A stretch of 64,000 nucleotides of DNA from Candidatus Altimarinota bacterium (lineage in GTDB: Bacteria > Patescibacteriota > Gracilibacteria > UBA4473), in NCBI GenBank assembly GCA_965231215.1, contig OZ246423.1, positions 1 through 64,000 on the forward strand. Direction: 5' to 3'. Within the stretch, counting starts at the first letter, position 1; each line of letters opens with the position of its first letter. The notes under the pieces were generated by a model. It saw only the letters and a list, made by a program, of their open reading frames with translations, was not told the DNA's origin and searched no databases. Both the position numbers and the translations under genes were made by a program. This document shows, piece by piece, positions 12,037 through 43,724 of the stretch.

Positions 12037-12041
12037 GCAAT

Positions 12042-22243: not shown

Positions 22244-22258
22244 TTTTTATTATTAAGT

Positions 22259-24472: not shown

Positions 24473-24481
24473 TGATTAAAA

Positions 24482-26329
24482 ATGACAGACGAAACTAACA
24501 CAACATCAACCATTTTAGTAAAAACTGTAAGAGTTTATGGTCTTAGAGGATTAGAAAATATTCAAGTTTCTCTGGAGCCTACAACTGTATTAACTGGAAT
24601 GAATAATACTGGAAAAACTTCATTTCTAAAAGCTTTGCAAATAACTTTTGGGACTAAAAATTTTCTAACACATGATGATTTTCATATATGCAATGATACT
24701 GCTGTTGATAAAATCATAGTTGATGTAAATATTATTGCTGTAGATGGTGATGGAAAGCGGTTGGATTCATTTTCTAGTGATTGGGAAACTGTTTTTACTG
24801 AAAGTAGATTTAAATTTGATACTTCTGGCAAAGCTCATGTGCCAATTAGAACAGTTATGAAATATGATCCGCTTACAGGTAATTTTAAAAGCAAACAATT
24901 TGTTTTAAAAGAATGGAGTGAGTTCAAAAATAAGACAGGAGAATTCTGGTATCAACTTGATGATGGAGATAAAACTACTTTTAATCTGGAAGAGTTATTC
25001 TTTGTTTACACTGATGCCCAGAGAGATTTATTAGAGGATTTGAAAGTCAGAAACTCCTCTTTAGGTAAAATGTTATCGAAAATTAGTTATTCAGAAGCTG
25101 ATATTAAAGTCATAGAAACAGCGATTGATGATTTGAACAAAAAAGCGGTTAATTCAAGTGATATACTCTCTGATATTGAGACTACATTAAAGGGACTTGA
25201 CTCAGCAATGGACAATACAGCAAGTGGTGTTCAGATATCACCATTTGCAAAAAAAATAAGAGATTTGAATAAAGGAGTTTCAATCCAATACTCGGATTTT
25301 TCTATGGAGTATCACGGCATGGGAACTCGTAGTTGGTCTTCACTATTAACTCTTAAATCATTTGTAGAACTATTAGGGAAAAACGCAGTTAAAGAATCAA
25401 AATCTTTTTTCCCAATTATAGCCATCGAAGAGCCTGAAGCACATTTGCACCCTAACGCTCAAAAGAAAATCTATAGCCAAATGACTTCAATTTCGGGGCA
25501 AAAAATAATATCTACGCACTCTCCTTATATAGCAGCGTCTGCGAGACTAAATCAAGTAAGAAGTTTCTACAAAAGTGGTACAAATGTTATATCAGGAGAA
25601 ATTGATACGGCGACTTTATCGAATGAAGATATTAGAAAAATTAATCGTCAGGTAGTAAACACAAGGGGTGAACTCTTTTTTTCTAAAGCAATAGTATTCT
25701 TTGAAGGTGAAACTGAAGAGCAAGCATTACCAATATTTGCTAAAAAATATTTTGATGTAGATTTGCTAGAGATGGGAATAGATTTTGTCGGCGTTGGAGG
25801 TTGTGGAAATTACTATCCATTCATTAATTTAGCCAGATCACTTAATATCCCATGGTTTATTTTCAGTGATGGAGAAGTAAAGGTAATTAAAAAAATAAAA
25901 AAAGATCTTCAAAAACTATACGAAATTGACGATGTAAATATTGAAGAACAAGAAAATATAATCATATTGCCCGATGCTCTAGATTTTGAAAAATACCTAA
26001 TAGAGTCAGATTACACGGATGAAATCGTTAGTGCTTTAGAGTTATTACATACAAATGGTTATGTTGCTTCAGAAATCGCTAAAAGAGATGGAACGAATGG
26101 TAAGCGCATCAAAACACAGGAAATTTGTCACACCTGTCAACAATCAATATATCAAAATTTAATCAAAGATTACTCTGGAGACGAAGGATTTAAATGCGCT
26201 CTTTATGATCTGACAACTTCTCAAAAAACACAGTTTGGCTCAGTTATTGCAGATGTCATAATTAATTCAAATAAAGATCTACCACCGCTAGTTACAACTC
26301 TTTTTAGCAAATTAAAAAGTGCCTTATAA
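24482..26329 (+). CDS. gajA: OLD-family ABC-ATPase/TOPRIM nuclease (Gabija GajA-like)
   Basis: Walker A GMNNTGKT, EEPEAHLHP, STHSPY, TOPRIM FFEGETEE and FSDGE; adjacent to a UvrD helicase. Confidence 0.82.
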   Translation: MTDETNTTSTILVKTVRVYGLRGLENIQVSLEPTTVLTGMNNTGKTSFLKALQITFGTKNFLTHDDFHICNDTAVDKIIVDVNIIAVDGDGKRLDSFSSDWETVFTESRFKFDTSGKAHVPIRTVMKYDPLTGNFKSKQFVLKEWSEFKNKTGEFWYQLDDGDKTTFNLEELFFVYTDAQRDLLEDLKVRNSSLGKMLSKISYSEADIKVIETAIDDLNKKAVNSSDILSDIETTLKGLDSAMDNTASGVQISPFAKKIRDLNKGVSIQYSDFSMEYHGMGTRSWSSLLTLKSFVELLGKNAVKESKSFFPIIAIEEPEAHLHPNAQKKIYSQMTSISGQKIISTHSPYIAASARLNQVRSFYKSGTNVISGEIDTATLSNEDIRKINRQVVNTRGELFFSKAIVFFEGETEEQALPIFAKKYFDVDLLEMGIDFVGVGGCGNYYPFINLARSLNIPWFIFSDGEVKVIKKIKKDLQKLYEIDDVNIEEQENIIILPDALDFEKYLIESDYTDEIVSALELLHTNGYVASEIAKRDGTNGKRIKTQEICHTCQQSIYQNLIKDYSGDEGFKCALYDLTTSQKTQFGSVIADVIINSNKDLPPLVTTLFSKLKSAL

Positions 26330-26340
26330 AAAATATAACC

Positions 26341-28185
26341 ATGAAAATAAAATTATCAGAAACCCAGAAGAAAATAGTAGATCATGAAAATGGTTCTTTG
26401 CTCGTAATGGCTAGTGCTGGCACAGGGAAAACACGGGTTTTGACTGAAAGAATTAAAAAATTACTGAAGATTTCCACTAAAAAGATTTTAGCCATAACTT
26501 TTACAAATAAGGCTGGACAAGAGATGAAGGAGCGTTTAGGAACTGATGAGGAAGTGTTAAAAAGAGTTTTTATAGGAACTTTCCATAGCTTTTGCCAGAA
26601 AATACTTGAACAACGGTGCAATTTGCTTGGTTATTCTAAAATGCCTCAAATATTTGAAAGTATTAGTGATAGACTTGAACTAATAGAAGAGGCTATAAAT
26701 AATGTTCCAAGTTTCTCTGATCGTTATAAAAGTCTCGAAAATAAAGGTAAAAAAGATTTTAAATATAATGCTTTAGATTTCATTTCTAAAGCGAAAAGAG
26801 AATTGTGGTCTGATGACCAAATTTTAGAAAATGAAAATGCAGATTATGTGCTTTTATACAACGAATATAATGACATTTTGCTATCACAAAATGCCATCGA
26901 CTTTGATGATTTAATCAAACTAACTTTTGAATTATTTATAAATAATCCTGCTATTTCAGGACTATACAGAAGGTCTTATGAGTATATTTGTGTAGATGAA
27001 GCTCAAGATTTAAATAAGGCACAATATTACCTACTAAAAGCAATAACTGGAGATGAACACAAAAATGTAATGATGATTGGAGATGTGAATCAATCAATAT
27101 ATGCCTTTAATGGTTCTTCTTCTGAATATATGAGTAAGTATTTTAAGAGCGACTTTAATCCAACTGAAATAAGTCTCATAGAAAATTACAGGTCTTCTCA
27201 AAAAGTAATTGAAGCTGCAGAGAAAATTATGGAAAACTCTGGGGAAGTTATGAATATGGCTATAACAGGGAAATTTGAAATACAAAAAGCCAGTGATGAA
27301 AATACTGAAATTGACTGGATAATAGGGAAAATCGAAGAGTTGATTATACAGAAAACACATGAAGATATTGAGGGAGAAATAACTTATGAAAAGATAGCAA
27401 TTCTTGTTAGAAACAAATATGTATTGGGGAATCTGCCAGAAAAGTTAGATGAATTAAATATCCCTTATTATTTTAAAACAAGTCCAGGGGCTATTGAGTT
27501 TGAATCAGATACTATGAATGTTTTTGATTTGGCGTTAAAGGTAAAATTAAACCCAAAAGATAAACTTCATTTAGATAAATTACTACAAATATTAGCCATT
27601 AATAAATACACCGGGATCAGTGATCTAATAAGAAGTGTAGAGGAAATACCTTTTAGAGAAGTATTGACTCTAGTGAATGATTTAAAAGAAGATGGTAGTA
27701 ATTTTACAGGTCTTTTAGACAGTTTTTCAGAATACGTATCTACATCTAATGACTTTGGAGATGATAATGAAAGAAGTATGACATTTAATGATATTAATGA
27801 GTTGAAATTACATTGGTATGCATATGCAAAAACTGTAGATACTAAATCGATTGATCAATTTAAAAGTGCGATGGCTCTTGGGCAAACCCACTCGAACACA
27901 AATCAAAAAGGAATCACATTAAGCACTGTGCACACCATGAAAGGTTTAGAGTACGATATAGTTTTTCTTATGGGGGCAGACGATGGGACATTTCCTGATT
28001 ATAGGGCAACTCAAAAAAGAGGTGTAGAGTTGCTTCAAGAAAAAAATAATATGTATGTTGCTTTTACAAGATCCAGACGGTTCTTGTATGTTTCTTATCC
28101 CGAGAAAAGACGAATGCCATGGGGAGATGTGAACAGAAGATCTATCTCTCGTTTTTTAAAAGAATTTCCAATTAATGAGGAATAA
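26341..28185 (+). CDS. gajB: UvrD/PcrA-like SF1 helicase (Gabija GajB-like)
   Basis: ASAGTGKT, ITFTNKA, VDEAQD, GDVNQSIY, ENYRS, STVHTMKGLEYD, YVAFTR. Confidence 0.85.
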   Translation: MKIKLSETQKKIVDHENGSLLVMASAGTGKTRVLTERIKKLLKISTKKILAITFTNKAGQEMKERLGTDEEVLKRVFIGTFHSFCQKILEQRCNLLGYSKMPQIFESISDRLELIEEAINNVPSFSDRYKSLENKGKKDFKYNALDFISKAKRELWSDDQILENENADYVLLYNEYNDILLSQNAIDFDDLIKLTFELFINNPAISGLYRRSYEYICVDEAQDLNKAQYYLLKAITGDEHKNVMMIGDVNQSIYAFNGSSSEYMSKYFKSDFNPTEISLIENYRSSQKVIEAAEKIMENSGEVMNMAITGKFEIQKASDENTEIDWIIGKIEELIIQKTHEDIEGEITYEKIAILVRNKYVLGNLPEKLDELNIPYYFKTSPGAIEFESDTMNVFDLALKVKLNPKDKLHLDKLLQILAINKYTGISDLIRSVEEIPFREVLTLVNDLKEDGSNFTGLLDSFSEYVSTSNDFGDDNERSMTFNDINELKLHWYAYAKTVDTKSIDQFKSAMALGQTHSNTNQKGITLSTVHTMKGLEYDIVFLMGADDGTFPDYRATQKRGVELLQEKNNMYVAFTRSRRFLYVSYPEKRRMPWGDVNRRSISRFLKEFPINEE

Positions 28186-28621
28186 AATTAACCCTCAAAT
28201 GTTGGTTAATATTTATAAAAAACTAACTAAAAAAGAGCTTCTTAAAATCAAACCAATATGGGCATTTGATAACAATTTATTTCGTGACTTCGATGGATAT
28301 ATTTTTGCTTGGGCTAACGTTTTTGAATTGGTAAAAAAGTCAGAATTTGGGGCAATGGGGGGTGATATAAATCCCTATGTCCTTTTTTCCGAGAGAGAAA
28401 ACGGAAATCAAAGAATAGCAGAAGTTCTTTACCGATGGGAGAATGGAATGTTAATTGATCCGCCAACAATTCACTGTGATAGATTTGGAACTATTAAAAT
28501 GTCTGATGGTCGGCATAGGCTAATAACAGCTTTTCATCTGGGCGAAAAACAAATTCCAGTGGCTATAGATACATCTAATAAAGAAACTATCTCGAAATTT
28601 CTAGATTTAAAATTTATTTAA
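28175..28621 (+). CDS. Small ParB/sulfiredoxin-like domain protein
   Basis: DPPTI...MSDGRHRLITAFHLGEKQIPVAI matches the ParB-N DGxHR core. Confidence 0.7.
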   Translation: MRNKINPQMLVNIYKKLTKKELLKIKPIWAFDNNLFRDFDGYIFAWANVFELVKKSEFGAMGGDINPYVLFSERENGNQRIAEVLYRWENGMLIDPPTIHCDRFGTIKMSDGRHRLITAFHLGEKQIPVAIDTSNKETISKFLDLKFI

Positions 28622-28624
28622 AAT

Positions 28625-29791
28625 ATGAGTTACTTCAAACACCTTAAACCAAGAGAGTACTACGAAAATCTTTACGATGAGATGACGGTAAGAGAGTGTC
28701 ATTTTTTTGAGCAAAGCTTTCTAGATGATTACCCTCAGGTTGAAATGATTGAATTTCGATCTACGGAAGAAGAAAGAACTATGGAGGTAGATTTAAATAA
28801 GAAAGAAAAAGAAAAGAAGGAAGAGGTAGAACTGTCAGATGAGGAAAAAGAGTTTCGGACAAGATATGCCATAACAAGGCTTGCTCTCTACTATAAATCA
28901 GCACATCGAGCTGCTAATAGAAGAGAAAAAATCGATGAGTGGATACAGAGAGACACCTTAAAAGACGAAAAACGAGCTAATCTCTGGGAAGTACATCTAG
29001 AAAACTCTAGAAAACGGTGTCGCCAATGTGGGGACTTAATGAAGTGTTTCAATAAAGACTTCCACGACATTGGCGACCAAGAAGACCGTATTTTGTTTAT
29101 GTACGAGTGTGTGGACTCTAATTGTAAGTACAGGGAAGCTGAATTTGAAAATGGAGAATTATGGAAACCAGAAAAGTCAAAGTGTCCTGAATGTGGAAGT
29201 TGTCTAGAAGAATCAAGTAAACGGCTTAAAACCAAAATAAAGCACTATTCCAAGTGCCCTAATTGTGATTTTAAGGATGTATGGGAGATTGATTTGAACA
29301 AGAAACCAAAAAAGAAAACCAAAGAAGAGTTAGAGTCAGAAAAACTAATGGAGAGAGATAAGCTTCGTTTTTGCCTCTCGGAGAAAGAAGGAGCAGAATT
29401 CAAAGAGTCTTACGAACGAATTAAGCGATTTAATGAATCCGTGAATCGAGAAAAAGAGCTAGAAAAAACTGGTGAATCATACCAACAGATCAAACAACTA
29501 GAAAAATTAACACTATTAGAAGCTCAGAAGCAAATTAAAGAAGGAATTAAAGGTAAAAAGTTCTTAAAACTTAAATTTGGGGAGCCTGATATGGGGCGTG
29601 ATGTCGTTTTTGAATTTAAACTTTATGAAGGAAATCCAGAAAGAAGTGAGAGTAAAGCAACAAAAGAGCTTAAAAAGCTTATTATAAAAGCCTTGGATCA
29701 AACCAATTGGAAGCTTATGAGTGATGGTATTAGCTCTCGATTAGGTATCTACTCTGGGCGTATCAGGAGCATAGAATACAAAAGGTTTTAA
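28625..29791 (+). CDS. Hypothetical protein with tandem Zn-ribbon motifs
   Basis: CRQC...CVDSNC and CPEC...CPNC; otherwise charged and helical. Confidence 0.75.
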   Translation: MSYFKHLKPREYYENLYDEMTVRECHFFEQSFLDDYPQVEMIEFRSTEEERTMEVDLNKKEKEKKEEVELSDEEKEFRTRYAITRLALYYKSAHRAANRREKIDEWIQRDTLKDEKRANLWEVHLENSRKRCRQCGDLMKCFNKDFHDIGDQEDRILFMYECVDSNCKYREAEFENGELWKPEKSKCPECGSCLEESSKRLKTKIKHYSKCPNCDFKDVWEIDLNKKPKKKTKEELESEKLMERDKLRFCLSEKEGAEFKESYERIKRFNESVNREKELEKTGESYQQIKQLEKLTLLEAQKQIKEGIKGKKFLKLKFGEPDMGRDVVFEFKLYEGNPERSESKATKELKKLIIKALDQTNWKLMSDGISSRLGIYSGRIRSIEYKRF

Positions 29792-29969: not shown

Positions 29970-30059
29970 TGGCGGAGAGGATGGGATTCGAACCCACGAT
30001 ACCATTGCTGGTATACTCCCTTAGCAGGGGAGCGCTTTCGACCACTCAGCCACCTCTCC
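29970..30059 (-). tRNA. tRNA-Ser(GCT)
   Basis: Long variable arm, anticodon arm CTCCC-CT-GCT-AA-GGGAG, ends GCCA. Confidence 0.95.
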
Positions 30060-32944: not shown

Positions 32945-33044
32945 AAGTGCGGCGATCTTGGCAAAAATTAATGCAAAATGCAACTCAAATTTATATTTCT
33001 TAGGCATTTGGGTCTCCTTAAAATATTGTCCTAAAATCCCCTTT

Positions 33045-33222
33045 TGAAATAATTTTCTAAAAGTAGAGATGAGCTATACGTTAAAAAGGCCATATATCAT
33101 CGAGCGCAGCGAGTTTGGCTTTTTTAGAATGTGAATCGGGTGCTTTTAAAATTCTTTCAGTAGGAGGCCCTTTTTTGATTCGTTTTTTGGGCAAACAAAA
33201 AATGAATAAACCTAAGAGGCCT
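33045..33222. repeat. Long imperfect intergenic palindromic element
   Basis: Nested pairings TGAAATAATTTTCTAAAAGTA/TGCTTTTAAAATTCTTTCA and AAAAAGGCCA/TGGCTTTTTT around CGAGCGCAGCGAG, then ATTCGTTTTTTG/CAAAAAATGAAT hairpin. Confidence 0.55.
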
Positions 33223-33229
33223 ACAACAA

Positions 33230-33258
33230 AAAAGGCCAATCTGCACGATTGGCCTTTT
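33230..33258. terminator. Intrinsic terminator
   Basis: AAAAGGCCAATC-TGCAC-GATTGGCCTTTT perfect hairpin just downstream of the pilin-like fragment. Confidence 0.8.
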
Positions 33259-33280
33259 AATAGATTTTATTAATTGAAAC

Positions 33281-33397
33281 TTATGCTCCAGATTCTCCAC
33301 TTCCACTGCTAGTAGCACCACTTAAACTATCAACAATACTTTGGAACACGGCTTGAATTTGCTCTCCCATAAGAGTCATAACCGCTACTACAAAGAG
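33281..33397 (-). pseudogene. Flp/type IVb pilin-like C-terminal fragment
   Basis: LFVVAVMTLMGEQIQAVFQSIVDSLSGATSSGSGESGA*; in-frame TAA four codons upstream, so no G/xxxxEY leader. Confidence 0.55.
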
Positions 33398-33644
33398 TTG
33401 AATTTTTTAAGCACTTCATAAATAACTTTGACCTTACTCCTGGAAGAGAACCCAATAAACTAATACTCAAAAGCACTTTCCATATTATGGTAATAGCTGA
33501 GGTAAAAGTTGGGCCATCAAAAAAACTAGAACTTTTAAGTTTTTATCCACTCTAAAAAAAAGAAATCCCCCCTGTATAGAGTTTTTCATCTACATTGAAC
33601 GGGAGGTTTCTATGGGTTCTAACAAGAACAAGATCATACTATAG

Positions 33645-33681
33645 AATCTAAGCCCAAAAGTCAATTTCTGGGCTTCAGATT
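33645..33681 (-). terminator. Hairpin downstream of SLH gene
   Basis: AATCTAAGCCCA...TGGGCTTCAGATT inverted repeat 8 nt after the stop codon. Confidence 0.55.
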
Positions 33682-33689
33682 AACTTCAT

Positions 33690-35990
33690 TTATTCAAACC
33701 TATTCTGTTTTTGTTCTCGCATCCAAAGCAGTCGATACAGGTTTTCTGAAACTCCAGCACGTAAGTGCTCTGCCCCTGGTGAGAAACTTGAGCCAGTTTC
33801 CTCAAGTAATCCTTTTTCTTTAGCGAGTTTCACGTACGGAGCAAACCAATGGGCTTTATCCACATCACTGTAAGGGTTTTGATCCACTTGGCTGGTATCA
33901 TAACCATATGATTCAAGAAGCATCTTTAAACTCTCAACTTTAGAAACTGACTTAGCTGGGCCAAATGTTCCATCTGGATATCCCTTTACCCAACCTTGAG
34001 CCTTGGCATAACATACAAACGGGGCAAACCACTCTGTACCCACATCAGGAAAGCAGTTAGAATACTGCGAACTATCTGGATTTAAGCCTTTCCCGGCTAC
34101 TAGTATTTTGAGCATTTCAGCTCTATTAACTGTTTTAGTTGGTTTAAAACTCCCATCTTCATATCCTTGGATAATTTTTTTTGTTTTGAGGTATTCTACG
34201 GCTTTATGGTTTTTATGAGATGTGTCTAAATCAGAAAAGATTTTTACTTTATTGGTTCGGCCATCCTGTAAGGCTCTATATCTTTCTTCTTTTTCTTTTT
34301 GAGCTTCTTGTGCGGCTTCTTTAGCATCTGGGTCACCTATGATCGTATTCTCTACACTAGACACTGGCTTAGGTGATTTAATCGAAGTATTACCTCTAAA
34401 GTTTGGTCGTTTATTTATTAAAACCGCACTATCGGGAACCGGTTTTTCAGGGGTACTGTAAAGTATTTCACCTCCCTTATTATGATAAACTTGATACTGG
34501 TGCTCATTTATAAATGCTTTATCAGTAGATTCAATCACTTCACCATTAACGATACCTTTATCGGCACTGCTTTTTATATGAAACACCTTCCAAATATCAT
34601 CTACGTTTGGGTCTCTGAAAGAATTTTGGAAGTTTGCCGTAACCTCTACTGTAACATCCTGTCCAGGTTTAACATCAATATGACTTGGGAACTTTAAACG
34701 ATACGTATGCCCAAATAGTCCGTCTGCACTTTTTGATGAACGAAGATATTTGGTTCCACTTTTGTAAAGTCCGGTAACACTTACATACTCTAGTGGAGCT
34801 GGAGTGTCTACCGCCAACCAAATTTCTTCAACCTTAACTGGTGCAGTTACAGCACTTAAGTTAATTTCCATAACCTGTGTAAAGTCAGCACCTTTAGCAA
34901 TTTTCTGTGGAATTTTTATAGCAGTAGATTCAACCTCTAGCACGTTCCCTCCACCTAAATGTGAAGACGCTCCACTAGCACCAGGTTCAAATTGGTATGC
35001 CTTAAGATAAAATCCGTTATCCGCTACAGTGTTCACACCAAAAGATGTACCAATTTCTGATCCAATAATGTCGTTAGAACTTTCCACTCTAAAGTTAATA
35101 GTTTTTCCATCTGTAGCAGGGGCTGTATCCCCTTTTAAAGAAAAAGTAATACTTTTACCATCTTCAATAATATAACCACCAGTTATACCATTATCTACAA
35201 CAAATGTAACTGTATCACCACTAACAATAGTATTGGCAGAAACCTGAAATCCTCCTGCATGAAGGGCTAGGTTTTTAAGATCTGTACCAAGTTTAGCCGT
35301 ACCCATACTTTTAAATTTTATAGATCTAAGTTCTACGTCTTTATTCGTACTAGATGCATTAGATAGACTAAACTGTCCAATCTCTACACCCTCTTGGCCT
35401 ACCCCTACATTAGTGTCTGCTCCAAGCGTTGCGAATCGAAGTTTAGTTGTTTGGTAATCTGCAATTTCCATTTCTTCTCCCTCAATAGGAAAATTACCAT
35501 TAACAGAAGCTGAAGTTCCAATATCGCTATTAGAAGCCAAAACAAACCGATTATGACTTCCAATGTTCTTATTCCCAGAAAGTTGAGCTACTAAATCTGC
35601 TAAAACAGTTTGTCCAGACGGAATGACAATAGGCGGATTAAAAGAGAGCTTTACCTCTTCTTGAGCATTATTTATTGAGCTACTTATTCCAGCCTTAAAT
35701 CCATTAACTTCAAGCCAGGCACTACTGAAGTCAGTTTTCTCACCTAAGCCTAATCTGGTAAATATCAAAGATGAAATTTTCACATCTGATCCGTTTCCCG
35801 CAGTTAGCTCAATAGTAGTAAAAGGTATGGCCGGAGAATCATAAGGAATATTAGTACCACGTGGAGTATCATTAGAAAGTGAGACATCTAAACTTGCAGC
35901 TGATACAATACTGGCACTTAGACCAACAAAGAGCATAAGTGCTAATGTAAATATTTTGTACCGGAAGTGGGTTTTTGTTTTTGATTTCAT
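33690..35990 (-). CDS. S-layer homology (SLH) domain surface protein
   Basis: Signal peptide (VSA), beta-rich Ig-like body, three C-terminal SLH repeats (FSDL...IQGYEDGSFKPTKTVNRAE; FPDV..WF..GYPDGTFGP; YSDV..WFAPYV). Confidence 0.9.
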   Translation of the reverse strand: MKSKTKTHFRYKIFTLALMLFVGLSASIVSAASLDVSLSNDTPRGTNIPYDSPAIPFTTIELTAGNGSDVKISSLIFTRLGLGEKTDFSSAWLEVNGFKAGISSSINNAQEEVKLSFNPPIVIPSGQTVLADLVAQLSGNKNIGSHNRFVLASNSDIGTSASVNGNFPIEGEEMEIADYQTTKLRFATLGADTNVGVGQEGVEIGQFSLSNASSTNKDVELRSIKFKSMGTAKLGTDLKNLALHAGGFQVSANTIVSGDTVTFVVDNGITGGYIIEDGKSITFSLKGDTAPATDGKTINFRVESSNDIIGSEIGTSFGVNTVADNGFYLKAYQFEPGASGASSHLGGGNVLEVESTAIKIPQKIAKGADFTQVMEINLSAVTAPVKVEEIWLAVDTPAPLEYVSVTGLYKSGTKYLRSSKSADGLFGHTYRLKFPSHIDVKPGQDVTVEVTANFQNSFRDPNVDDIWKVFHIKSSADKGIVNGEVIESTDKAFINEHQYQVYHNKGGEILYSTPEKPVPDSAVLINKRPNFRGNTSIKSPKPVSSVENTIIGDPDAKEAAQEAQKEKEERYRALQDGRTNKVKIFSDLDTSHKNHKAVEYLKTKKIIQGYEDGSFKPTKTVNRAEMLKILVAGKGLNPDSSQYSNCFPDVGTEWFAPFVCYAKAQGWVKGYPDGTFGPAKSVSKVESLKMLLESYGYDTSQVDQNPYSDVDKAHWFAPYVKLAKEKGLLEETGSSFSPGAEHLRAGVSENLYRLLWMREQKQNRFE

Positions 35991-36052
35991 AGGAAATTAT
36001 GAGGGTTAAGAAAAATAATTATTGAAATGATAAAATTTAGAATAAATTTGAA

Positions 36053-36889
36053 TTATTGAGAAAGCGCTTTTCCCTTGGCCTCTTTCTCTGGAGTCCAAGG
36101 ATCAAGTTCAACACCCTCCTTTTCTCGAAGGAAATCTATAACCTTTTGTCTCCAATCAGTTCCATATTGTTCTACTGCAACTTCAGGCCAATATCTATTA
36201 TTTTCAATTTTCCAAATAAGCATGGGTTGCTCATCCACTTTTCCATTTACTAAGTTGACTGGCCCACCTCTATAATCAGCACCATTTTGCAATAAAATGT
36301 AAGCTTCATCCCAACTTGCCATATCAATGGGAGTATCACCTCGATTGTTCCTTTGCTCTTTATCTGCCCCGTGATCTAACAGGATTTGCAAGTTCTCAGT
36401 ACGATTCGAATTTAGCGCTTGGTATACCGGTGTCGGCCAAGAGGAATCATTATTAACTTCAAGTTCTAAATCTATGTTTGATTTATTTTCTAATATCATC
36501 TTTAAGTAACCTGAATCTATATACCTAGAGGCAAGATGTATTATAGCCCATCCATATTTACTATCATGCTGTGACACACTAGCCCCATTCTCAAGTAAAT
36601 ATTTAAAACTTTTTTTCTTTTCAGGCGTCTCTTTATTGGCTACAAAAAGCCAAAATAAAGGAGTCAAACCATCCTCACCTACAGTATTAACATCAACTCC
36701 AGAAGTTAGTAATTGTTCCATCTTTTCAGTATCTCCATTCGAAGCAGCATTACATAACTCTATTACTTTGGGGTCTTTAAAATATCTTTGAGCTTCTTGG
36801 TATTTAAAAACTGATTTATTACCACCACAAGCAGCTAAAACAAAACAAAAACTGAAAACAAAAATTACTTTAGTAAAACTTTTAAACAT
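36053..36889 (-). CDS. Ankyrin-repeat lipoprotein, putative lipase-toxin immunity protein (PhlB-like)
   Basis: Lipobox LAAC; YFKDPKVIELCNAASNGD...GVDVNTVGEDGLTPLFW and further ankyrin repeats; starts 4 nt after the lipase gene. Confidence 0.8.
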   Translation of the reverse strand: MFKSFTKVIFVFSFCFVLAACGGNKSVFKYQEAQRYFKDPKVIELCNAASNGDTEKMEQLLTSGVDVNTVGEDGLTPLFWLFVANKETPEKKKSFKYLLENGASVSQHDSKYGWAIIHLASRYIDSGYLKMILENKSNIDLELEVNNDSSWPTPVYQALNSNRTENLQILLDHGADKEQRNNRGDTPIDMASWDEAYILLQNGADYRGGPVNLVNGKVDEQPMLIWKIENNRYWPEVAVEQYGTDWRQKVIDFLREKEGVELDPWTPEKEAKGKALSQ

Positions 36890-36893
36890 ACTT

Positions 36894-39800
36894 TTAGTAG
36901 GTTATATGGTCAATGGTTCCTTTTAGTGCACTCAGTTTATCAGGAAGAAAGGCATAAGACCAATCTCCTCCATCGTAAACTTGCCTACCCAAAGCATCTG
37001 GAGCTAAGTCAAATTTAAGCTGAAAACGAGTTAAGATATCACCTCGAGTAATATAGTTAGTTATGTTACTAAAATCATTTGTAGTTAACTGTGCATTGGC
37101 AAGTGTATTCGCATGAACTCCAGCCGCATTAAACGTATAAGTCGGAGCCCCTGTTATAGCTCCAGCGGTAGCTGCTAATCCACCCCCTAGAGAGTGCCCC
37201 GTAATAATTAACTCTTGATTACCTATATTGTTGTTTATAGAATCCAATATATTTACAAGGCCTTCATACTGTCCTGTCTTAAAACCAAATCCTTGCCCCA
37301 TATTAGTAACCCAATCTTCAATATTTAACCCTGATCCAGAAAAAGCTAAAACTGTCTTTTGGCCATCAGAGTAAATACCAGCTTTTAACCCTGTCTGAGG
37401 ATCAACTAAATTAAACTCTTTTAATCCATAAAGACTAGCTTCCTGACGCTCAAATCCTTCTACCAAAAGTTGTTCTGGATTGCCAACTGCATGCGCAATT
37501 GCAGATGCCGTTTGTTTAGAAATATTATTACCAGATACTTCCGAAACAGGTATGGCTTCTGCTATTTGAACTAATTTTAGTTCTGCAGAATCAACAAAGT
37601 CAGTAAGATTAGAAATCGATTGTCCTAAATCATTCAAACTAGCCAACCAAAGAGACTCTTCTGATCTATTATCTAAAAGCTCTTTAGCTAAGTTTTTTAG
37701 TTCGGTAATTTCTCCTTCATCAGAAAAGTCACTAATTGTATAACTTCCTTCAATAATGCTTTTCATGGTGTCACCATACTTCAAACTATTTTCCATCATC
37801 CAAATTTCATTTCTTGCACCAAATTCCTGCATTTGCTTCACACTTAAAATTCCTCCGCCTACTCCAATATCAGCCACCAAAACACTATATGGAGCACGTC
37901 CAGCTTTCAAGTTAGCAATAATGTCTGATTTTATTTGTTCTTTTTCTGAAAGTTGATCTTGAGCCCAGTGATCAAATTCACTTTGTTCTAATTCTTTTTG
38001 ACTCTTTAATGCACTATTCTCTACAAGATTTTGATTATTCTGCACTAACACATCTTGTGCTTCTCTCCTTTCTCGCTCCGCCACCATCGCCTCTTCCAAA
38101 GTCTCCACATGCACGACTTGGGCCCGATGTTCATTGAGTTCCTGGATCAGTTCAGCTTCACGTTGTTCACTTCGCTGAGCTACAAGTTCTTTGGCTTTGG
38201 CAAAGTAGGTTGGGATAGCCGAGGCTATCTGTGCATATTCATCACTTAACCTTTTGTCTATAGCAGCAATACTAGCGGCATGCTTTTGGTTAAAGGCTAA
38301 TAAGTCCGCTTGGTATTGCACCACCTCTTGTTGACCATTAGTGATGTAACGCTCTAGTGCAGCTATTTTAGCTTCAGCATTTTTAATCTGAGTAGCTAAG
38401 AAACCTGGACGATCAGCATACAGTTCTTGGAGTTTTGGAATACCTTTACGTATTTTGGCAATTTCTCTTTGTTTAGCGGCGATAGTCCCATCTTGGTCTT
38501 CCAAGAAATTTCTGACTGTAGCCGTCATAACCGGTTCTTTGATGCCACTATCTGTAAAAAGATTACGTCTATCATTTTCTTTTTGCTGAGCGAGGAGTCT
38601 TTGTGCCTCTGCGGCAAAGGCGCTCTCGTTTCCGTAAGCACTTCGGTACGCCTCTTCTATAACGCGTCTTTGGTTGCGAGTAAGGCTGACTTGTAGTTCA
38701 GTTGAACCACTAGATGGTATGTAAGCGATTTGCTGTAGCTCAGAAAAATTTATGACCTGAATAGTTTCTTGGTTGGCTTGGGCTTTGATAGCTTCAGGCG
38801 TACCGTTAGTTACAAATTCATTCCGAGTCTGTGTCGCTTCTTTTTGTGCATTAGCCACCAAGGTTTCGGCCTCTTGCAGTACTTTTAGTTTTTGGTCGGC
38901 ATTTTCATAAGCCGCTTTAATTTTTTCATAACGAGCAATTTGTTCAGCAGTAAAGTTATCTTCTAAACTTTGCCCAAATTGTGCTTCCCATTCTGCTTCA
39001 CGAGCTGCAAAAAGGGTGGCTTCTTTTTCATTAATTTTGCGAATATACTCAGCTTTTGATTCACTATTATATAAAGTTCTAGAAAGCTTATACCATTCGT
39101 GGAGCTCAGCATCGTTTCGGTTTGGAACCGCTATTCGACGTTTGTAGGGATTTGTAGTTGGATACCATGATGATGCTTTGACATAAGCTGGAGGCAGTTC
39201 TCCCCTCATAACAGCATTATAGTTCGAAATTATTTGGCTTTGATAAGGATCTCGAGTCGGTAATTCCATAACACTATTCATCTCATCGATAGCTTTTTGT
39301 CTTATAGCTTCAAAGCCTATTTGTTCGTTTGTCTGCCCGTAAAGTTTGTAAAATTCTTTAGCTTTAGTTTGAGCCTCAACAAATTTATAAACCGGATCGC
39401 AACAGTATTGATCTCGATAATAAATAAGCCCAATATCAGCACCAACATCACTTTGAGTTACCTGAGACTCTGGGTCTGAGACAAAAAACTGGTGATAGTG
39501 CGCTAATTTTTCTAATCCTTTAGCTATATTATTTTCAAGTGATTGAATATTTGATTTGAGTTGTTCCTCTTCTCCCCATGTGCGATTACTCGACTGGTTT
39601 TGTATTTGTAAGTTTGCAAGTTCTGATTTCCAATTATGGAGCTGAGCAAAGGTGAATCTAGCATTTCGAGCATAAGGATGGTCACTATATTTTTCTATAA
39701 TCTTTAGAAAGTCTTTAATCTGGTGAATAGAAGATGTATATCGCTGTTTATAACTTTGCTTACGCTCATATAAATAGCTTTCGTTTTTGAGATCATCAAT

Positions 39801-41906
39801 CTGTTTTTTTAAATCGTTCAACGGGGCTCTTAACCGGGCCCGAGAAGCTTCAGCACTAAAATATCTATAAATGGAAAGCGTAGTACTACTTCTATTAACG
39901 GCTAAAGGACGGCCCCGCCTATCAGTAAAATGTCTATTCCAGTAACTCCAAAAAGCATTCCAATCTCCAGTTTTGGCTGCTTTAACAATAGGATCCGGAG
40001 ATGTCCCTACTCTAATAGTTGGGATAGATCTATAAGCTGTACTAGAAGTTATAACACTCAATTTTTTCTCATATTCATTTGTTAAAGTTTTAATAGTGTT
40101 TTCTCGCTGAATATGATCTGAATCAAGCGATAATTTAGTGAGGTTACTCTGGTATAGATGTTTTGCATTTTGTTCTTCTAAAAACTCAATCTGAGAATTT
40201 AGTTCACTTATCTGATCCGCATATTTTTTATCATAATTTTTTTGAATTTTTTGATTATCTAAATAACGAGTATCAAAAGGATATGGTACCCAACGACCAT
40301 AACGATCGTGCCTATACTTTATGTATCTCCCCCTAGAATCTTTCAAAACACCTTGAGCCGCATAAGCCTTATCTCTAAATACTTTAAAGTTAACAATATC
40401 TTTTTTTGCCTCTTTAAGTGTTTCTATTTGAGACTCCAGTTGTTGGATTTTAGCAAAGCCTTCTATTATTTTTGATTCAGCTAGATTTGCATCTGTATTT
40501 TTAGATTCTTGATTAATGAATGATTCCAACTCAGAGGCCGAAATCCTTGAAATAAGTTTTTCCAAAATCGCACCAAAATTCTCATTTTTCCGCTCTGATT
40601 GTTCTTTTAAATTTGATTGAACTTTTCCAGAAAGAGTGCCTAAATTTTTGAGCCAGTTGGTATTAGTTTGAACCACTTCATTTAACTTTTCCCATTGATT
40701 ATAAGCCGCATTCCAATAAGAAGAATAGTGGCTAACAACTTCACTTTGGGCTTTCCTATATTCAGTTCTGTATTGAGCAAGCCTTTTACCCGCATCAACA
40801 TAAGGCTGCCTCACTTTCTGATCCAAGCCTGGAAAACTTCCAAGGCGCCACTGTCTTTCCCATTGGTATTTAAGAGCTATTTGCATTCTCCAAATCGCAT
40901 AAGCATACCGCCGGCGTTGCCCTGAACTGGACACATAAGCATTAACTTTACTAAGCTTCAGTCTTTCGTTTTCTAGATAAGTCTGAACCTGAGCTCGAGA
41001 CATACTTCTAGCAGCTGTGAAAAGTTTATCTCTATATTTCCACTCTGACATAAACTCAGTCCTAAAATCAATATGCAGTGAAGGATCCAAAAAGTCATTA
41101 TAGACTTTTGGCCTTCCATCTGATCTTAACAAGTTTCTTGTTTCTAGAATTTCTTGATGCTTTTGATTCTCCAATTTTCTTAAAGGTTGATAATAAGCTC
41201 TTCTAAACTGAGACCAACTCTTATATTGAAGCCCATCCCAAATATTTCGAAAAAACCCTTCCATTTGTTTTTGAGAGTCATCCACTTGGTTTGCAGATCC
41301 ATATTTTTCTTGAATTTCTTTTCTCTTTCTCCAGAGCAAATATAGCCCAGCAATCGTCGCTCCTGCTCCAGGTAACCCTTTTTTCTTCGCCCAGTTTTCC
41401 CATTCGTCATTAGTAGACGGGACACTAGTAGTACCATTGGCAATATCAGTATCATTAAAAGTGGTTTCAAAAAGCGCTTCAACCGCTACCGAGTCCCCAC
41501 TGCGAAGTGAAGAAAGCTCTGCCTTCCGGCGTCTTCTCCAAACAGCATAAGCTCCAGCTAAAGCCGCACCAGTAGTTCCAAGCGTTTTAGCTAAAGCTTC
41601 CCAATCATCAACCAGCCTTCCATCTTTTAATTGTCCATAAGCCCCATCTATATCAAAGTTCTGACTAAAGTAATTTTGTACTATTTTATCTTCACTCAAC
41701 CGTTGAATCTCTGCCTGTTGCAGCGCCTGAAATTGAGCCAGAGTGGCCCCCCCTACCGATACTTCATAAGTAGTTCTTTCTCCAATCGTAGGATCATCAA
41801 AATCCTGCGCCCAAGCCTGGCTGACCGTTAGTGATAGAGGATTGATGGTAAACGCCAAAAAACACCAGATGAGCCAGTAACAATACCGAGATTCTTTTCT
41901 AGACAT
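36894..41906 (-). CDS. Large secreted coiled-coil protein with C-terminal lipase (DUF2974/PhlA/Tle4-like) domain
   Basis: Signal peptide (AWA-Q), long helical body, C-terminal VLAFSGS..DWVTN, ITGHSLGGGLA, TFNAAG, GDILT and terminal His. Confidence 0.85.
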   Translation of the reverse strand: MSRKESRYCYWLIWCFLAFTINPLSLTVSQAWAQDFDDPTIGERTTYEVSVGGATLAQFQALQQAEIQRLSEDKIVQNYFSQNFDIDGAYGQLKDGRLVDDWEALAKTLGTTGAALAGAYAVWRRRRKAELSSLRSGDSVAVEALFETTFNDTDIANGTTSVPSTNDEWENWAKKKGLPGAGATIAGLYLLWRKRKEIQEKYGSANQVDDSQKQMEGFFRNIWDGLQYKSWSQFRRAYYQPLRKLENQKHQEILETRNLLRSDGRPKVYNDFLDPSLHIDFRTEFMSEWKYRDKLFTAARSMSRAQVQTYLENERLKLSKVNAYVSSSGQRRRYAYAIWRMQIALKYQWERQWRLGSFPGLDQKVRQPYVDAGKRLAQYRTEYRKAQSEVVSHYSSYWNAAYNQWEKLNEVVQTNTNWLKNLGTLSGKVQSNLKEQSERKNENFGAILEKLISRISASELESFINQESKNTDANLAESKIIEGFAKIQQLESQIETLKEAKKDIVNFKVFRDKAYAAQGVLKDSRGRYIKYRHDRYGRWVPYPFDTRYLDNQKIQKNYDKKYADQISELNSQIEFLEEQNAKHLYQSNLTKLSLDSDHIQRENTIKTLTNEYEKKLSVITSSTAYRSIPTIRVGTSPDPIVKAAKTGDWNAFWSYWNRHFTDRRGRPLAVNRSSTTLSIYRYFSAEASRARLRAPLNDLKKQIDDLKNESYLYERKQSYKQRYTSSIHQIKDFLKIIEKYSDHPYARNARFTFAQLHNWKSELANLQIQNQSSNRTWGEEEQLKSNIQSLENNIAKGLEKLAHYHQFFVSDPESQVTQSDVGADIGLIYYRDQYCCDPVYKFVEAQTKAKEFYKLYGQTNEQIGFEAIRQKAIDEMNSVMELPTRDPYQSQIISNYNAVMRGELPPAYVKASSWYPTTNPYKRRIAVPNRNDAELHEWYKLSRTLYNSESKAEYIRKINEKEATLFAAREAEWEAQFGQSLEDNFTAEQIARYEKIKAAYENADQKLKVLQEAETLVANAQKEATQTRNEFVTNGTPEAIKAQANQETIQVINFSELQQIAYIPSSGSTELQVSLTRNQRRVIEEAYRSAYGNESAFAAEAQRLLAQQKENDRRNLFTDSGIKEPVMTATVRNFLEDQDGTIAAKQREIAKIRKGIPKLQELYADRPGFLATQIKNAEAKIAALERYITNGQQEVVQYQADLLAFNQKHAASIAAIDKRLSDEYAQIASAIPTYFAKAKELVAQRSEQREAELIQELNEHRAQVVHVETLEEAMVAERERREAQDVLVQNNQNLVENSALKSQKELEQSEFDHWAQDQLSEKEQIKSDIIANLKAGRAPYSVLVADIGVGGGILSVKQMQEFGARNEIWMMENSLKYGDTMKSIIEGSYTISDFSDEGEITELKNLAKELLDNRSEESLWLASLNDLGQSISNLTDFVDSAELKLVQIAEAIPVSEVSGNNISKQTASAIAHAVGNPEQLLVEGFERQEASLYGLKEFNLVDPQTGLKAGIYSDGQKTVLAFSGSGLNIEDWVTNMGQGFGFKTGQYEGLVNILDSINNNIGNQELIITGHSLGGGLAATAGAITGAPTYTFNAAGVHANTLANAQLTTNDFSNITNYITRGDILTRFQLKFDLAPDALGRQVYDGGDWSYAFLPDKLSALKGTIDHITY

Positions 41907-42284
41907 TATAGAGAGGGTTACAAAAATAGTGGACTGACTGTGGAGTCAGAAATTGGATTTTATTTTTGTTTTTGTGGACTATTGTTATGCATTTTGAATC
42001 ATTTTTGATCCATCTGCAAAACTTTTTTGATTTTGAAACTTTATTTTGATAATAAAGCTACTTTGAAATGTAAAATATTATTTGGATTACGCAAACCTGC
42101 TTTTTCATAAAAAATTAATTTTCAGAAATATTTACAAAAAATAATATAATGAGTTTATGCTCCCAAAGAAACTCCAATCCCTCACACAAAAACACTTAGA
42201 AATTATAAAGAATTTTCAAGCTACCCAAAGCACGCTAGAAGCCGAATTCAAGCACAAAACCAAACCTAACGACACTTCACAATA

Positions 42285-43466
42285 ATGGTAAAGAAACCAG
42301 AAAAAAAGCTAGATAAATTACCAGACCGGTTAGCGGAAACTGGGAAAAGCCCTGAAACACTCAAAGATGATGTAGGGCGAGAAACCATAAAACAGATGTC
42401 GCGAATGGAACGAGTAGAAACTTTGGATATTCCACATGCAGCTCCCTTAGCTGCCTCATACCAATTACTAAATCAAATAGAATCTAGGCCACTCAACCAT
42501 ATGGCTCTACTTGCCCAATTAAACAAAATTGAAGATCCAAAAAAACGTGAAGTAATGACCTATATCTACATTCAGATGATAGGAAACCAACAAAATATTC
42601 AACAGATATTTCATGATGGAGTCAAAGATATTGCGGCTTTTGGTGAAGTGCCACAAGACATCATCTTTGCCGCCATGGATGCCGGAGAATTTGATGATAT
42701 GGAAAGTCTAGAAGAAATATTATCGGATGAATTCCGTGATCAAGAAAAGGCTTGGCAAACCTACATATACGATCAAAGAAAACCCCAAAACCTTCTCTGG
42801 ATGGATGCGGCCATGAGTGTTGAAGAAATGAAACGTCGTAAAAATTTACTCTGGAAAATACATCAGGAATATGCCACAGCGTCGGCCTCAGATAGAAAAG
42901 CCATGAAAGAAATGTTGATGAAGACTTTTGGTATAACCCATATTCCTACAGGCGCTACTGAATTTATAGATAAAATCTTTACCACCCAAACCAGTATGCA
43001 GCTAGAAGGTGCCGAGAGTGCCCTAGCTAGCATTATCCATCATGAGCAAGCGCCACGATTTGTAGAGGTTCAGGGAAAGGGAGAACAACCAGATGATTTT
43101 GAAGCGTTGCTCAAACTCATGGCACTGATGCACCACCTGCAACTAGAACTTGGGGATGAAGAATTCCAAGCCCTCACCGGGCAAATAGATGCGGTACTGG
43201 ACAAAGACAATGCCCTGAAACTCATGCAGAAACCTGAATTTCAGTCGGGAATGCAAATCAATCAGTTACCTGAAGCTATTAAAAAAAATCCAACTTTCAT
43301 GAAAGCGTTCCAAAAATTTCTTAAAAAATTACAACAATTTGCTCAAAAACAGGGGGTTTCTATAAAACCCCCTAATACCAATAGCGAAGGGGTAAAAGTA
43401 AAACTCCCCGCTACCCCGAACGACAGCTATAAATTTATCATTACCGATCCTGGGCTTTTGGTTTAA
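42285..43466 (+). CDS. Hypothetical helical protein
   Basis: 393-aa ORF filling the gap, no motif recognised. Confidence 0.7.
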   Translation: MVKKPEKKLDKLPDRLAETGKSPETLKDDVGRETIKQMSRMERVETLDIPHAAPLAASYQLLNQIESRPLNHMALLAQLNKIEDPKKREVMTYIYIQMIGNQQNIQQIFHDGVKDIAAFGEVPQDIIFAAMDAGEFDDMESLEEILSDEFRDQEKAWQTYIYDQRKPQNLLWMDAAMSVEEMKRRKNLLWKIHQEYATASASDRKAMKEMLMKTFGITHIPTGATEFIDKIFTTQTSMQLEGAESALASIIHHEQAPRFVEVQGKGEQPDDFEALLKLMALMHHLQLELGDEEFQALTGQIDAVLDKDNALKLMQKPEFQSGMQINQLPEAIKKNPTFMKAFQKFLKKLQQFAQKQGVSIKPPNTNSEGVKVKLPATPNDSYKFIITDPGLLV

Positions 43467-43647
43467 AAAATATTCTGAATAAAGTTGAAATTTCCCAGTA
43501 AATGCTTATTTTTCCTTAGCTCTTAGTATATTTAGGGCTCCCATTAAAGCGGAGAGCGAAAGCGCGCTTTCATGGGAAGAGGAGATGATATGAAGCAAAC
43601 GCAGTTTTTATCCAGAAAAACGAAGTAAGCGAAGTCATCATCGACGA

Positions 43648-43724
43648 CGGGGTGTAGCTCAGTTGGCTAGAGTGCACGGTTTGGGACCGTGAGGCCGCAG
43701 GTTCGAGTCCTGTCTCCCCGACCA
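43648..43724 (+). tRNA. tRNA-Pro(TGG)
   Basis: C1, anticodon arm CACGG-TT-TGG-GA-CCGTG, ACCA end; one U-U mismatch in acceptor stem. Confidence 0.95.

Follow-up and report, generated by a model that had tools for sequence, protein, structure and literature searches.

This text concerns a candidate toxin and its immunity protein in a stretch of 64,000 nucleotides (nt) from a Candidatus Altimarinota bacterium (assembly GCA_965231215.1, contig OZ246423.1, positions 1 to 64,000 of the forward strand). We call this whole stretch the window. It is the start of a genome of 1,326,059 bp (1.33 Mb) that consists of one contig and is rated 99% complete. On the minus strand of the window three genes follow one another: P0001 encodes a very long protein that ends in a lipase, P0002 an ankyrin-repeat lipoprotein and P0003 a protein with SLH domains. 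An earlier reading of the bare letters (the original prediction) described three co-oriented, closely spaced genes. This arrangement is real: the open reading frames (ORFs) all lie on the minus strand, with gaps of 4 nt and 62 nt. The genes and the parts of P0001 are as follows (aa, amino acids).

36894..41906, minus strand: putative toxin gene P0001, 1,670 aa (ORF, Pfam Lipase_3 and homologues)
41808..41906, minus strand: predicted Sec signal peptide of P0001, codons 1-33, beginning MSRKESRY and ending in AWA, then Q (read from the sequence)
41307..41807, minus strand: leader module, codons 34-200, the only part common to the whole family
37749..41306, minus strand: body, codons 201-1386, of which about 370-1250 is conserved in a subclade only
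37836..37892, minus strand: Gly-rich hydrophobic segment PYSVLVADIGVGGGILSVK, codons 1339-1357, just before the tip (hydropathy scan)
36897..37748, minus strand: Tle6-type lipase tip, codons 1387-1670, the last 284 residues (phmmer against PDB)
37191-37193, 37038-37040 and 36906-36908, minus strand: predicted catalytic codons Ser1572, Asp1623 and His1667 (alignment, conservation)
36053..36889, minus strand: putative immunity gene P0002, a 278-aa ankyrin-repeat lipoprotein (Pfam ankyrin families, position of orthologues)
33690..35990, minus strand: gene P0003, a 766-aa secreted protein with three C-terminal SLH domains (Pfam SLH)

The C-terminal tip of P0001 is a recognisable lipase. Pfam Lipase_3 matches residues 1547-1633 (E 2.2e-5, 24.8 bits against a cut-off of 22). 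When the tip is searched against the PDB with phmmer, the sole clear match to a solved structure is 7ubz_B, a 'T6SS lipase effector' (Enterobacter cloacae Tle, E 1.1e-13; T6SS, type VI secretion system). The GHSLGG motif and the acid residue that follows it align with 7ubz_B, at Ser1572 and Asp1623. The catalytic residues, His1667 included, are invariant in four relatives. The GHSLG lipase with a plausible Ser-Asp-His triad, proposed from the letters alone, is thus borne out.

The same tip occurs on many other proteins. Its precomputed family, PF26363, ends all 12 of the RHS proteins found in the whole-protein search. There are 417 shorter relatives of the tip, and among the 120 listed about 20 are fused to WXG100 and about 27 have PF20410, including one that NCBI calls XVIPCD domain-containing. 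The same 120 include four proteins with PF05488, three with PF14107 and one with VgrG-type domains. We take these last partners to be PAAR (PF05488), DUF4280 (PF14107) and VgrG. Thus the lipase tip appears to ride on carriers of type IV (T4SS), type VI and type VII (T7SS) secretion systems and on Rhs carriers elsewhere, as a travelling interbacterial toxin module would. In the genome studied here we find no match to Hcp, VipB/TssC or WXG100.

P0002, the second gene, matches Pfam ankyrin families (Ank_2, E 2.5e-16). It also has a lipobox, L-A-A-C21, whose Cys21 (36827-36829) is invariant in four orthologues. It can therefore be called an ankyrin-repeat lipoprotein, as had been suggested. Orthologues with 33-48% identity lie directly downstream of a lipase-tipped toxin gene in 3 other loci. 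Within the genus, the ankyrin profile finds matches only in the three of five genomes that have the lipase tip; G003 and G004 have none. This genome gives a single match for P0001 and a single one for the ankyrin profile.

At its other end P0001 carries an export signal. The N-terminus consists of a basic n-region, a hydrophobic core and A-W-A followed by Q, which makes it Sec-type. Ala33, position -1 of the predicted cleavage site, is invariant in nine aligned relatives. Sec export of P0001 is a prediction, and a well-supported one.

The leader behind the signal peptide starts with an acidic part of about 70 aa that contains F..DGAYG. Two similar Gly/Ala-rich hydrophobic units follow, at residues 107-128 and 177-196. 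They share the pattern W..K..G..G.A..AG.Y..W, each closing with W and a basic cluster, and both are moderately hydrophobic in P0001. This hydrophobicity is not conserved across the family: by a crude rule, 13 of 20 members have two hydrophobic units, six have one and one (P0040) has none. Hence the units cannot all be obligatory transmembrane anchors. An AlphaFold2 model of the leader from a nine-row alignment is all-helical, with a mean predicted local distance difference test (pLDDT) score of 69.5 and ten-residue blocks over about 51-200 that score 68-89. The leader has no sequence relative in the PDB, and Foldseek finds no match to the model at E <= 0.001 (best E 0.34).

The leader units (window 41319-41588) also resemble C-terminal sorting signals: each combines a short motif with a hydrophobic stretch rich in Gly and Ala and with a basic cluster. 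In the homologue of genome G002 (N-terminus of the L009 toxin) the second unit reads LPATG, a motif that is not conserved across the family. The genome under study has one sortase gene (C1:1294347-1294766).

The body is low in Pro and Gly and is basic beside the leader. It has no match in Pfam, PHROGs or PDB sequences. An AlphaFold2 model of residues 200-1390 (seven-row alignment) is of low confidence, with a mean pLDDT of 54.9 and a predicted template modelling score (pTM) of 0.35. About 78% of this low-confidence model is helix (926 of 1,191 residues), with single helices of up to about 90 residues and one small beta element. From the original prediction of a helical, coiled-coil body, the helices stand at the confidence of that model, and the coiled coil finds no support. 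At a period of 3.5 residues there is no power, that is no heptad periodicity, and there are no internal repeats.

We also considered the alpha-pore-forming fold of ClyA, Xax and Yax for the body and do not count it as a fold assignment: the model is of low confidence, and the similarities are generic helical hairpins at Z <= 9.3. On this low-confidence model Foldseek returns AhlB at E 0.088 and nothing at E <= 0.001. VIA-align places XaxB (Z 8.4) amid many unrelated helical proteins at Z 8-9.

Near its C-terminal end the body has the hydrophobic segment PYSVLVADIGVGGGILSVK. Eleven further members of the family have hydrophobic segments 170-370 residues from the C-terminus in the hydropathy scan. 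In locus L040 (1089-4331, genome G286) a member of 1,080 aa stops right after a hydrophobic pre-tip motif and a convergent gene comes next; its tip has possibly been lost.

Searches of Pfam, NCBIfam, PHROGs and PADLOC assign no family to leader or body, and NCBIfam gives nothing further on P0001. At E up to 0.1-1, neither P0001 nor any of 21 relatives shows one of the carrier families RHS, TPS (two-partner secretion), LXG/WXG, PAAR/VgrG, MafB-N and MuF. The Pfam and NCBIfam searches agree here with the first reading, which had recognised no RHS, filamentous haemagglutinin, VgrG/PAAR, LXG or MuF delivery domain. The core of that reading, a Sec-exported toxin on an unfamiliar scaffold, is upheld by the Sec-type signal and by the want of a known carrier family. 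P0001 is thus predicted to be a toxin with a Sec signal, an adjacent immunity gene and an unfamiliar scaffold.

The evidence that carries our interpretation comes from the relatives of P0001. We scored a leader profile (the first ~270 residues, alignment A1) against 1,835,955,588 representative proteins. It finds 31 representatives at E <= 0.001, and 23 of these reach E <= 1e-30. The whole-protein search finds four relatives of front and body (P0004-P0007), and among 41 related genomes nine contain matches, this genome counted. A search with a six-row full-length alignment finds only one locus in a named genome and four metagenome loci.

Only the front of the protein is common to these relatives. 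By BLASTP, 18 of 19 large members match residues ~1-200 of P0001, and the 19th is found by the leader profile. The body (~370-1250) is shared by five of the 19 large members in the same comparison. The tips differ most of all. We grouped the last 300 residues of 18 complete members by all-against-all BLAST together with Pfam and PDB searches. There are at least 10 tip classes that are unrelated by BLAST:

Tle6-type lipase: P0001 and others (7ubz_B)
VanY/M15 peptidase followed by lipase: relatives (Listeria phage endolysin L-Ala-D-Glu peptidase, 2vo9, E 8e-15)
Barnase: P0004, with the same tip in P0030 (1a2p, E 5e-27 for P0004)
Second type of microbial RNase, RNase Sa-like: P0040 (1py3, E 1.4e-5)
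CdiA-CT RNase A domain (RNAse_A_bac): P0034 (E 7e-15)
DUF6973: P0023 (E 1e-16)
'HVHFE', 'CTTTV' and others: no match

Three of the tips without a family match were searched against PDB sequences, with nothing informative. Homologues of the scaffold had been expected to carry different C-terminal domains if it delivers toxins, and they do so under a single leader.

The relationships among the leaders point the same way. The two leaders nearest to that of P0001 belong to P0007 (51% identity) and P0004 (47%), and both of these proteins bear tips other than lipase. The leaders of the lipase-tipped members are more distant, at 40-44% identity. Hence front and tip have different histories.

The leader is confined to a narrow group of organisms. 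It occurs in 11 of 40 sampled genomes from the same GTDB family. A search of 260 genomes that represent another 35 families of the class Gracilibacteria finds it in none. A search of Protein Atlas with the homologue P0020 gave no usable match. In the literature on toxins of Patescibacteria, the candidate phyla radiation (CPR), Gracilibacteria, Vampirococcus and Peregrinibacteria, and in that on PF26363, no paper describing this family came to light, although relatives may be listed in the supplementary tables of PMC11470151 and of CPR genome papers.

The downstream gene changes with the tip. A lipase tip is followed by an orthologous ankyrin gene in four of four loci (the window, G002, G001 and G011). 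The 'HVHFE' tip is followed by a protein of about 80 aa in three of three (L012, L022 and L039). Behind the DUF6973 and CTTTV tips lie genes for other small proteins whose starts resemble signal sequences. In none of the non-lipase loci examined does an ankyrin gene come after the toxin gene. The second expectation, that downstream genes should differ along with the tips, holds for both of the tips with several loci.

A metagenome locus suggests how a tip could be exchanged. Downstream of the family member in L022 lies an ORF of 552 aa in which a stretch of 749 bp matches the main toxin gene with 100% identity of the nucleotides (residues ~1219-1468). The identity ends exactly at the Gly-rich joint that forms the tip boundary, where the ORF diverges into a different tip with its own downstream genes. 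By its sequence this orphan cassette is a classical substrate for tip replacement.

The whole array of L022 (14729-18627, Ga0210041_1000532) contains, downstream of the family member, a small immunity-like gene, genes of 81 aa and 163 aa, the orphan toxin fragment with the new tip and a gene of 204 aa. At its end the genes of 81 aa and 163 aa occur a second time, as diverged copies (64% and 46% identity).

We consider it quite probable that the first two genes of the locus are a polymorphic toxin-immunity module, with a constant leader, an exchangeable lipase tip and an ankyrin lipoprotein as immunity protein. Such a module would work as follows. P0001 would be exported by Sec and kept at the surface of the producer through the hydrophobic units of the leader, with the body outside. 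The tip would then be presented to neighbouring cells, be they competitors, siblings or host. On the outer face of the membrane, the ankyrin lipoprotein would bind and block the lipase, both the cell's own and that of siblings, as Tli does for the Tle of E. cloacae. Cells without the matching immunity protein would suffer hydrolysis of their phospholipids from outside.

The other tips would fit into the same scheme with some additions. In relatives with an endolysin-type peptidase ahead of the lipase, the peptidase may cut the wall of the target first. RNase tips would need a further step to cross a membrane, for which the hydrophobic segments are speculative candidates. Recombination in the stretch that precedes the tip would exchange tip and immunity gene together, as one cassette, and the leader would serve as the constant carrier.

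Several points weigh against this interpretation. The first is the orientation of the body: with the signal peptide cleaved, one hydrophobic unit would leave the body inside and two would leave it outside. The model of the body, with its pLDDT of 54.9 and pTM of 0.35, does not support an extended stalk. The repeats of P0002 match hundreds of unrelated ankyrin proteins (338 PDB sequences). Hence P0002 is linked to Tli by the position of the gene and by co-occurrence, and specific sequence similarity is no part of the argument. The survey of downstream genes covers loci other than the contigs of the RNase-tipped P0004, P0030, P0034 and P0040. The window itself has neither an orphan cassette nor a peptidase domain. 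Finally, lipase activity, toxicity and binding by the ankyrin protein are predicted properties.

The precise known counterpart of the two genes is, on present sequence evidence, the Tle6-Tli pair of E. cloacae. PMC11470151 describes a lipase effector of the T6SS and an immunity protein that is an ankyrin-repeat lipoprotein (PDB 7UBZ and 9CYS). According to the same paper, Tle has a Ser-Glu-His triad, Tli cups the lipase with six ankyrin repeats, and the name Tle6 is proposed for the group, which is reported to be always paired with ankyrin-repeat immunity proteins. The lipases of P0001 and Tle are homologous: both have GHSLGG as the nucleophile elbow, the acid residue about 51 positions further on and a His at the C-terminal end. 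The immunity gene directly downstream again encodes an ankyrin-repeat lipoprotein. With this match, the analogy to PhlA/PhlB that had been drawn earlier becomes unnecessary.

The likeness does not extend to export. Here the lipase ends a protein of 1,670 aa with a Sec signal, in a genome that has no match to Hcp or TssC, so the T6SS export that marks the E. cloacae effector is not found. Tle is reported to be activated by an Arg-Lys methylglyoxal (glycation) crosslink that forms on the immunity protein. The crosslink-bearing helices fall outside the stretch that aligns between the tip of P0001 and 7ubz_B. Because T6SS export was looked for and not found, P0001 stands outside the class of T6SS effectors, and it is in no named carrier family.

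In overall design the family resembles other polymorphic toxins. MafB of Neisseria (MAFB-N/DUF1020) and WapA of Bacillus have a signal peptide, a constant front, variable C-terminal toxins, a matched immunity gene and downstream orphan cassettes. The family described here likewise has a signal peptide, a constant front, variable tips and a matched immunity gene, as well as an orphan cassette in a relative. In contrast to MafB and WapA, its leader and body fall into no Pfam or NCBIfam family and have no RHS repeats. Furthermore, the leader has two Gly/Ala-rich hydrophobic units and is confined to one GTDB family of the class Gracilibacteria. Sec-dependent polymorphic toxins as a type, with a signal peptide and lineage-specific N-terminal domains such as MAFB-N, are listed in Table 1 of PMC3482391.

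With CdiA/CdiI and Rhs systems the family shares modular exchange of tips at a fixed boundary, orphan tip-immunity pairs and some of the tip families themselves: P0034 ends in a CdiA-CT RNase A domain, and the lipase tip is found on RHS proteins. However, there is no TPS domain here, nor are there filamentous haemagglutinin repeats, a CdiB partner or an RHS shell. The body is helical in the low-confidence model, unlike the beta-helix of CdiA. An RHS-type toxin is mentioned for a Saccharibacterium in PMC6031116.

What would be new in P0001, then, is a carrier confined to one lineage and the apparent deployment of a Tle6 lipase independently of a T6SS in a CPR bacterium. This would extend polymorphic toxin systems to a CPR lineage for which we found none described, and would add a new leader family to the catalogue of carriers. 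It would also mean that the Tle6 lipase module moves among T4SS, T6SS, T7SS, Rhs and Sec-dependent carriers. Relatives of the carrier hold barnase, other RNases and wall-cutting enzymes, and their tips of unknown fold are candidates for new toxin activities.

An alternative to a weapon among relatives is one aimed at the host. The lipase, or in relatives the wall peptidase and RNases, would open and digest the host of an epibiotic CPR cell, and the ankyrin lipoprotein would serve for self-protection only. The organism suits this idea. Its genome is small (1.33 Mb). Among the 120 enolase relatives listed, seven bear the name of an organism, which is 'Candidatus Gracilibacteria bacterium' in six cases (70-77% identity) and just 'bacterium' in the seventh (68%). 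These two observations also agree with the earlier guess of a probable Patescibacterium.

There are precedents for attack on a host as well. PMC8080830 describes Vampirococcus, a related CPR bacterium, as a predator that has secreted enzymes, namely phospholipase and peptidoglycan hydrolases. Relatives of P0001 join a peptidase to the lipase, which would suit the breaching of an envelope. In Bdellovibrio, self-protection by an ankyrin protein against the cell's own wall hydrolases is established, according to PMC4686830. There, the ankyrin-repeat protein Bd3460 shields the bacterium from its own envelope-attacking enzyme. In contrast to P0002, its target is a DD-endopeptidase and not a lipase, and the enzymes there are not polymorphic.

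We think that an exclusive role in host attack is unlikely, though it deserves to be taken seriously. Polymorphic tips, matched immunity genes and an orphan cassette are the signature of conflict among relatives. Moreover, the leader occurs in only 11 of the 40 genomes of the family and is missing from the close relative G004; the lifestyle can therefore do without it. The main targets may be rivals of the same lineage or the host cell, and one does not exclude the other. Host attack stays in play because of the CPR way of life and because ankyrin proteins serve for self-protection in Bdellovibrio.

A bolder version joins both kinds of target, and we put it forward tentatively, as a possibility with the odds against it. 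Leader and body would together be an unrecognised Sec-dependent contact weapon of CPR bacteria. Anchored in the membrane of the epibiont, it would reach through an SLH-anchored surface layer and deliver exchangeable enzymes, be it wall peptidase, lipase or RNases, into host or rivals, with the leader units or the pre-tip segment crossing membranes. The 'long stalk' and the breaching of host membranes that were proposed originally are likewise inferences only. Little is known about the ways in which ultra-small CPR bacteria damage or exploit other cells; classical injection machines are missing from them, and the locus offers a concrete candidate weapon. If the idea of a contact weapon is true, this would be the first identified attack apparatus of Gracilibacteria-class CPR, with delivery that needs no type IV, VI or VII machine.

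All of these scenarios place the tip outside the cytoplasm. We regard this placement as likely, with a good share of doubt. It is favoured because the immunity protein is a lipoprotein, because relatives have a peptidoglycan peptidase and because P0040 has a signal peptide only. If body and tip were instead cytoplasmic, P0001 would be a type I membrane protein with a small sensor outside, acting in self-killing of the abortive-infection kind or as a stress effector, and held in check by the downstream protein. Six of 20 members have a single hydrophobic unit with a basic cluster, for which the positive-inside rule puts the body inside, and a defence island with type III restriction-modification and Gabija lies 4-13 kb away.

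Nevertheless, a cytoplasmic tip is improbable. A lipoprotein with a conserved lipobox acts outside the membrane, and a peptidoglycan peptidase in relatives fits poorly with a cytoplasmic place of action. The tip families are those of exported interbacterial toxins on T4SS, T6SS, T7SS and Rhs carriers. The signal peptide of P0040 comes with no hydrophobic unit at all, and PADLOC has no match for P0001.

The third gene, P0003, bears on a further alternative. Its C-terminal end carries three SLH stretches in Pfam (E 5.7e-27), and so the SLH protein of the original prediction is correctly named. Its membership in the system is not upheld. This genome contains 21 matches to P0003, and in sister genomes the contigs that carry its best relatives are not those of the toxin gene. 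In nine other loci with sequence beyond the 3' end of the toxin gene, none has an SLH gene downstream. A different SLH gene lies just upstream of the toxin gene in locus L018, which is at most a weak hint given how abundant SLH genes are here. By these comparisons the SLH gene is a neighbour and not a conserved partner.

The close spacing and shared orientation with P0003, and the SLH gene beside the toxin gene of L018, could also speak for a housekeeping enzyme of the envelope, that is a membrane-anchored lipase or autolysin that remodels the wall or S-layer together with the SLH protein. Against this, barnase and other RNases form the ends of homologous scaffolds, most relatives lack the gene, and SLH genes are as common here, and as rare downstream of the toxin, as just described. 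A housekeeping role is therefore very improbable.

A remnant of a phage tape-measure protein or tail lysin with lytic domains, suggested by a long helical protein with hydrophobic segments and by the endolysin-like peptidase of relatives (PHROGs endolysin, E 2e-15, P0020), is scarcely credible: PHROGs has no tape-measure match for P0001, P0004, P0020, P0023 or P0024, the sole row of the tail category is weak (phrog_17481, minor tail protein, E 0.0015, P0004), the protein has an N-terminal signal peptide, its immunity gene co-varies with the tip, and we saw no phage genes around the locus, where the neighbours are cellular genes.

The putative toxin-immunity module lies in a variable part of the genome. 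Two further features describe this setting:

33008..43544, no strand: variable island bounded by the DUF3352 gene and tRNA-Pro (43648-43724), with the cassette, the SLH gene and an ORF of 393 aa inside
33230..33258, minus strand: terminator-like hairpin, the nearest strong one past the three genes, made of a 12-bp stem and a T run after it

The island accounts for the ~10.5 kb between tRNA-Pro and DUF3352 and holds the 393-aa ORF, the toxin gene, the immunity gene and the SLH gene. In the complete genome G004 of the same genus, the genes for enolase, a nucleotidyl transferase, a TPR protein, thioredoxin (trx), tRNA-Pro, DUF3352 and MsrA are consecutive without an insertion; the toxin cassette is absent from this syntenic site. 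G002 has the cassette in the same neighbourhood and in opposite orientation. The Logan contigs of one study, which is probably the source sample, span the locus without differences.

At the border of the island, the segment 43544-43765 with tRNA-Pro is inverted relative to the flanking genes when compared with G004 (~90% identity over 138 bp). As a possible integration scar, a repeat of the tRNA-Pro region was looked for at the other border of the island, and none was found. The 393-aa ORF (42285..43466, plus strand) is divergent from the toxin gene and upstream of it. It occurs only in this genome among the five genomes of the genus searched and has no Pfam, PHROGs or PADLOC family.

The claim that the three genes end at a hairpin is right in part. 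The only strong terminator-like hairpin is the one listed above, and it lies ~430 nt past the stop codon of the SLH gene. Terminator-like sites are not more frequent in the region than in shuffled sequence (5 against a mean of 6.4). The motif TAACCCTC ahead of the start codons of the toxin and SLH genes has three copies in the window against two expected, which is not significant.

The genetic code of the organism deserves a remark. TGA stops only one of 36 ORFs of at least 200 aa, against 27 for TAA and eight for TAG. In-frame TGA is absent from the genes despite 1,096 out-of-frame copies, so the codon looks avoided and not reassigned. Reading TGA as Gly only lengthens spurious frames, and the real genes have no in-frame TGA; we therefore kept table 11.

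Three other regions of the window stand apart from the toxin locus. A giant ORF of at least 2,418 aa (2-7255, minus strand) runs off the end of the window and has no Pfam match. At 10546-14014 lie purine-synthesis genes with PurF-like (amidotransferase and phosphoribosyltransferase) and PurM-like (AIR synthase) domains; to our knowledge, such genes are missing from many CPR genomes. The defence island occupies 20573-28185, in a stretch of low GC content (0.31-0.34). It consists of a type III restriction-modification system (MTase_III E 7e-71, REase_III E 7e-19) and then Gabija (GajA E 2e-216, GajB E 6e-229). Two ORFs without assignment follow (28175-29791), and the island is adjoined by tRNA-Ser (29970-30059).

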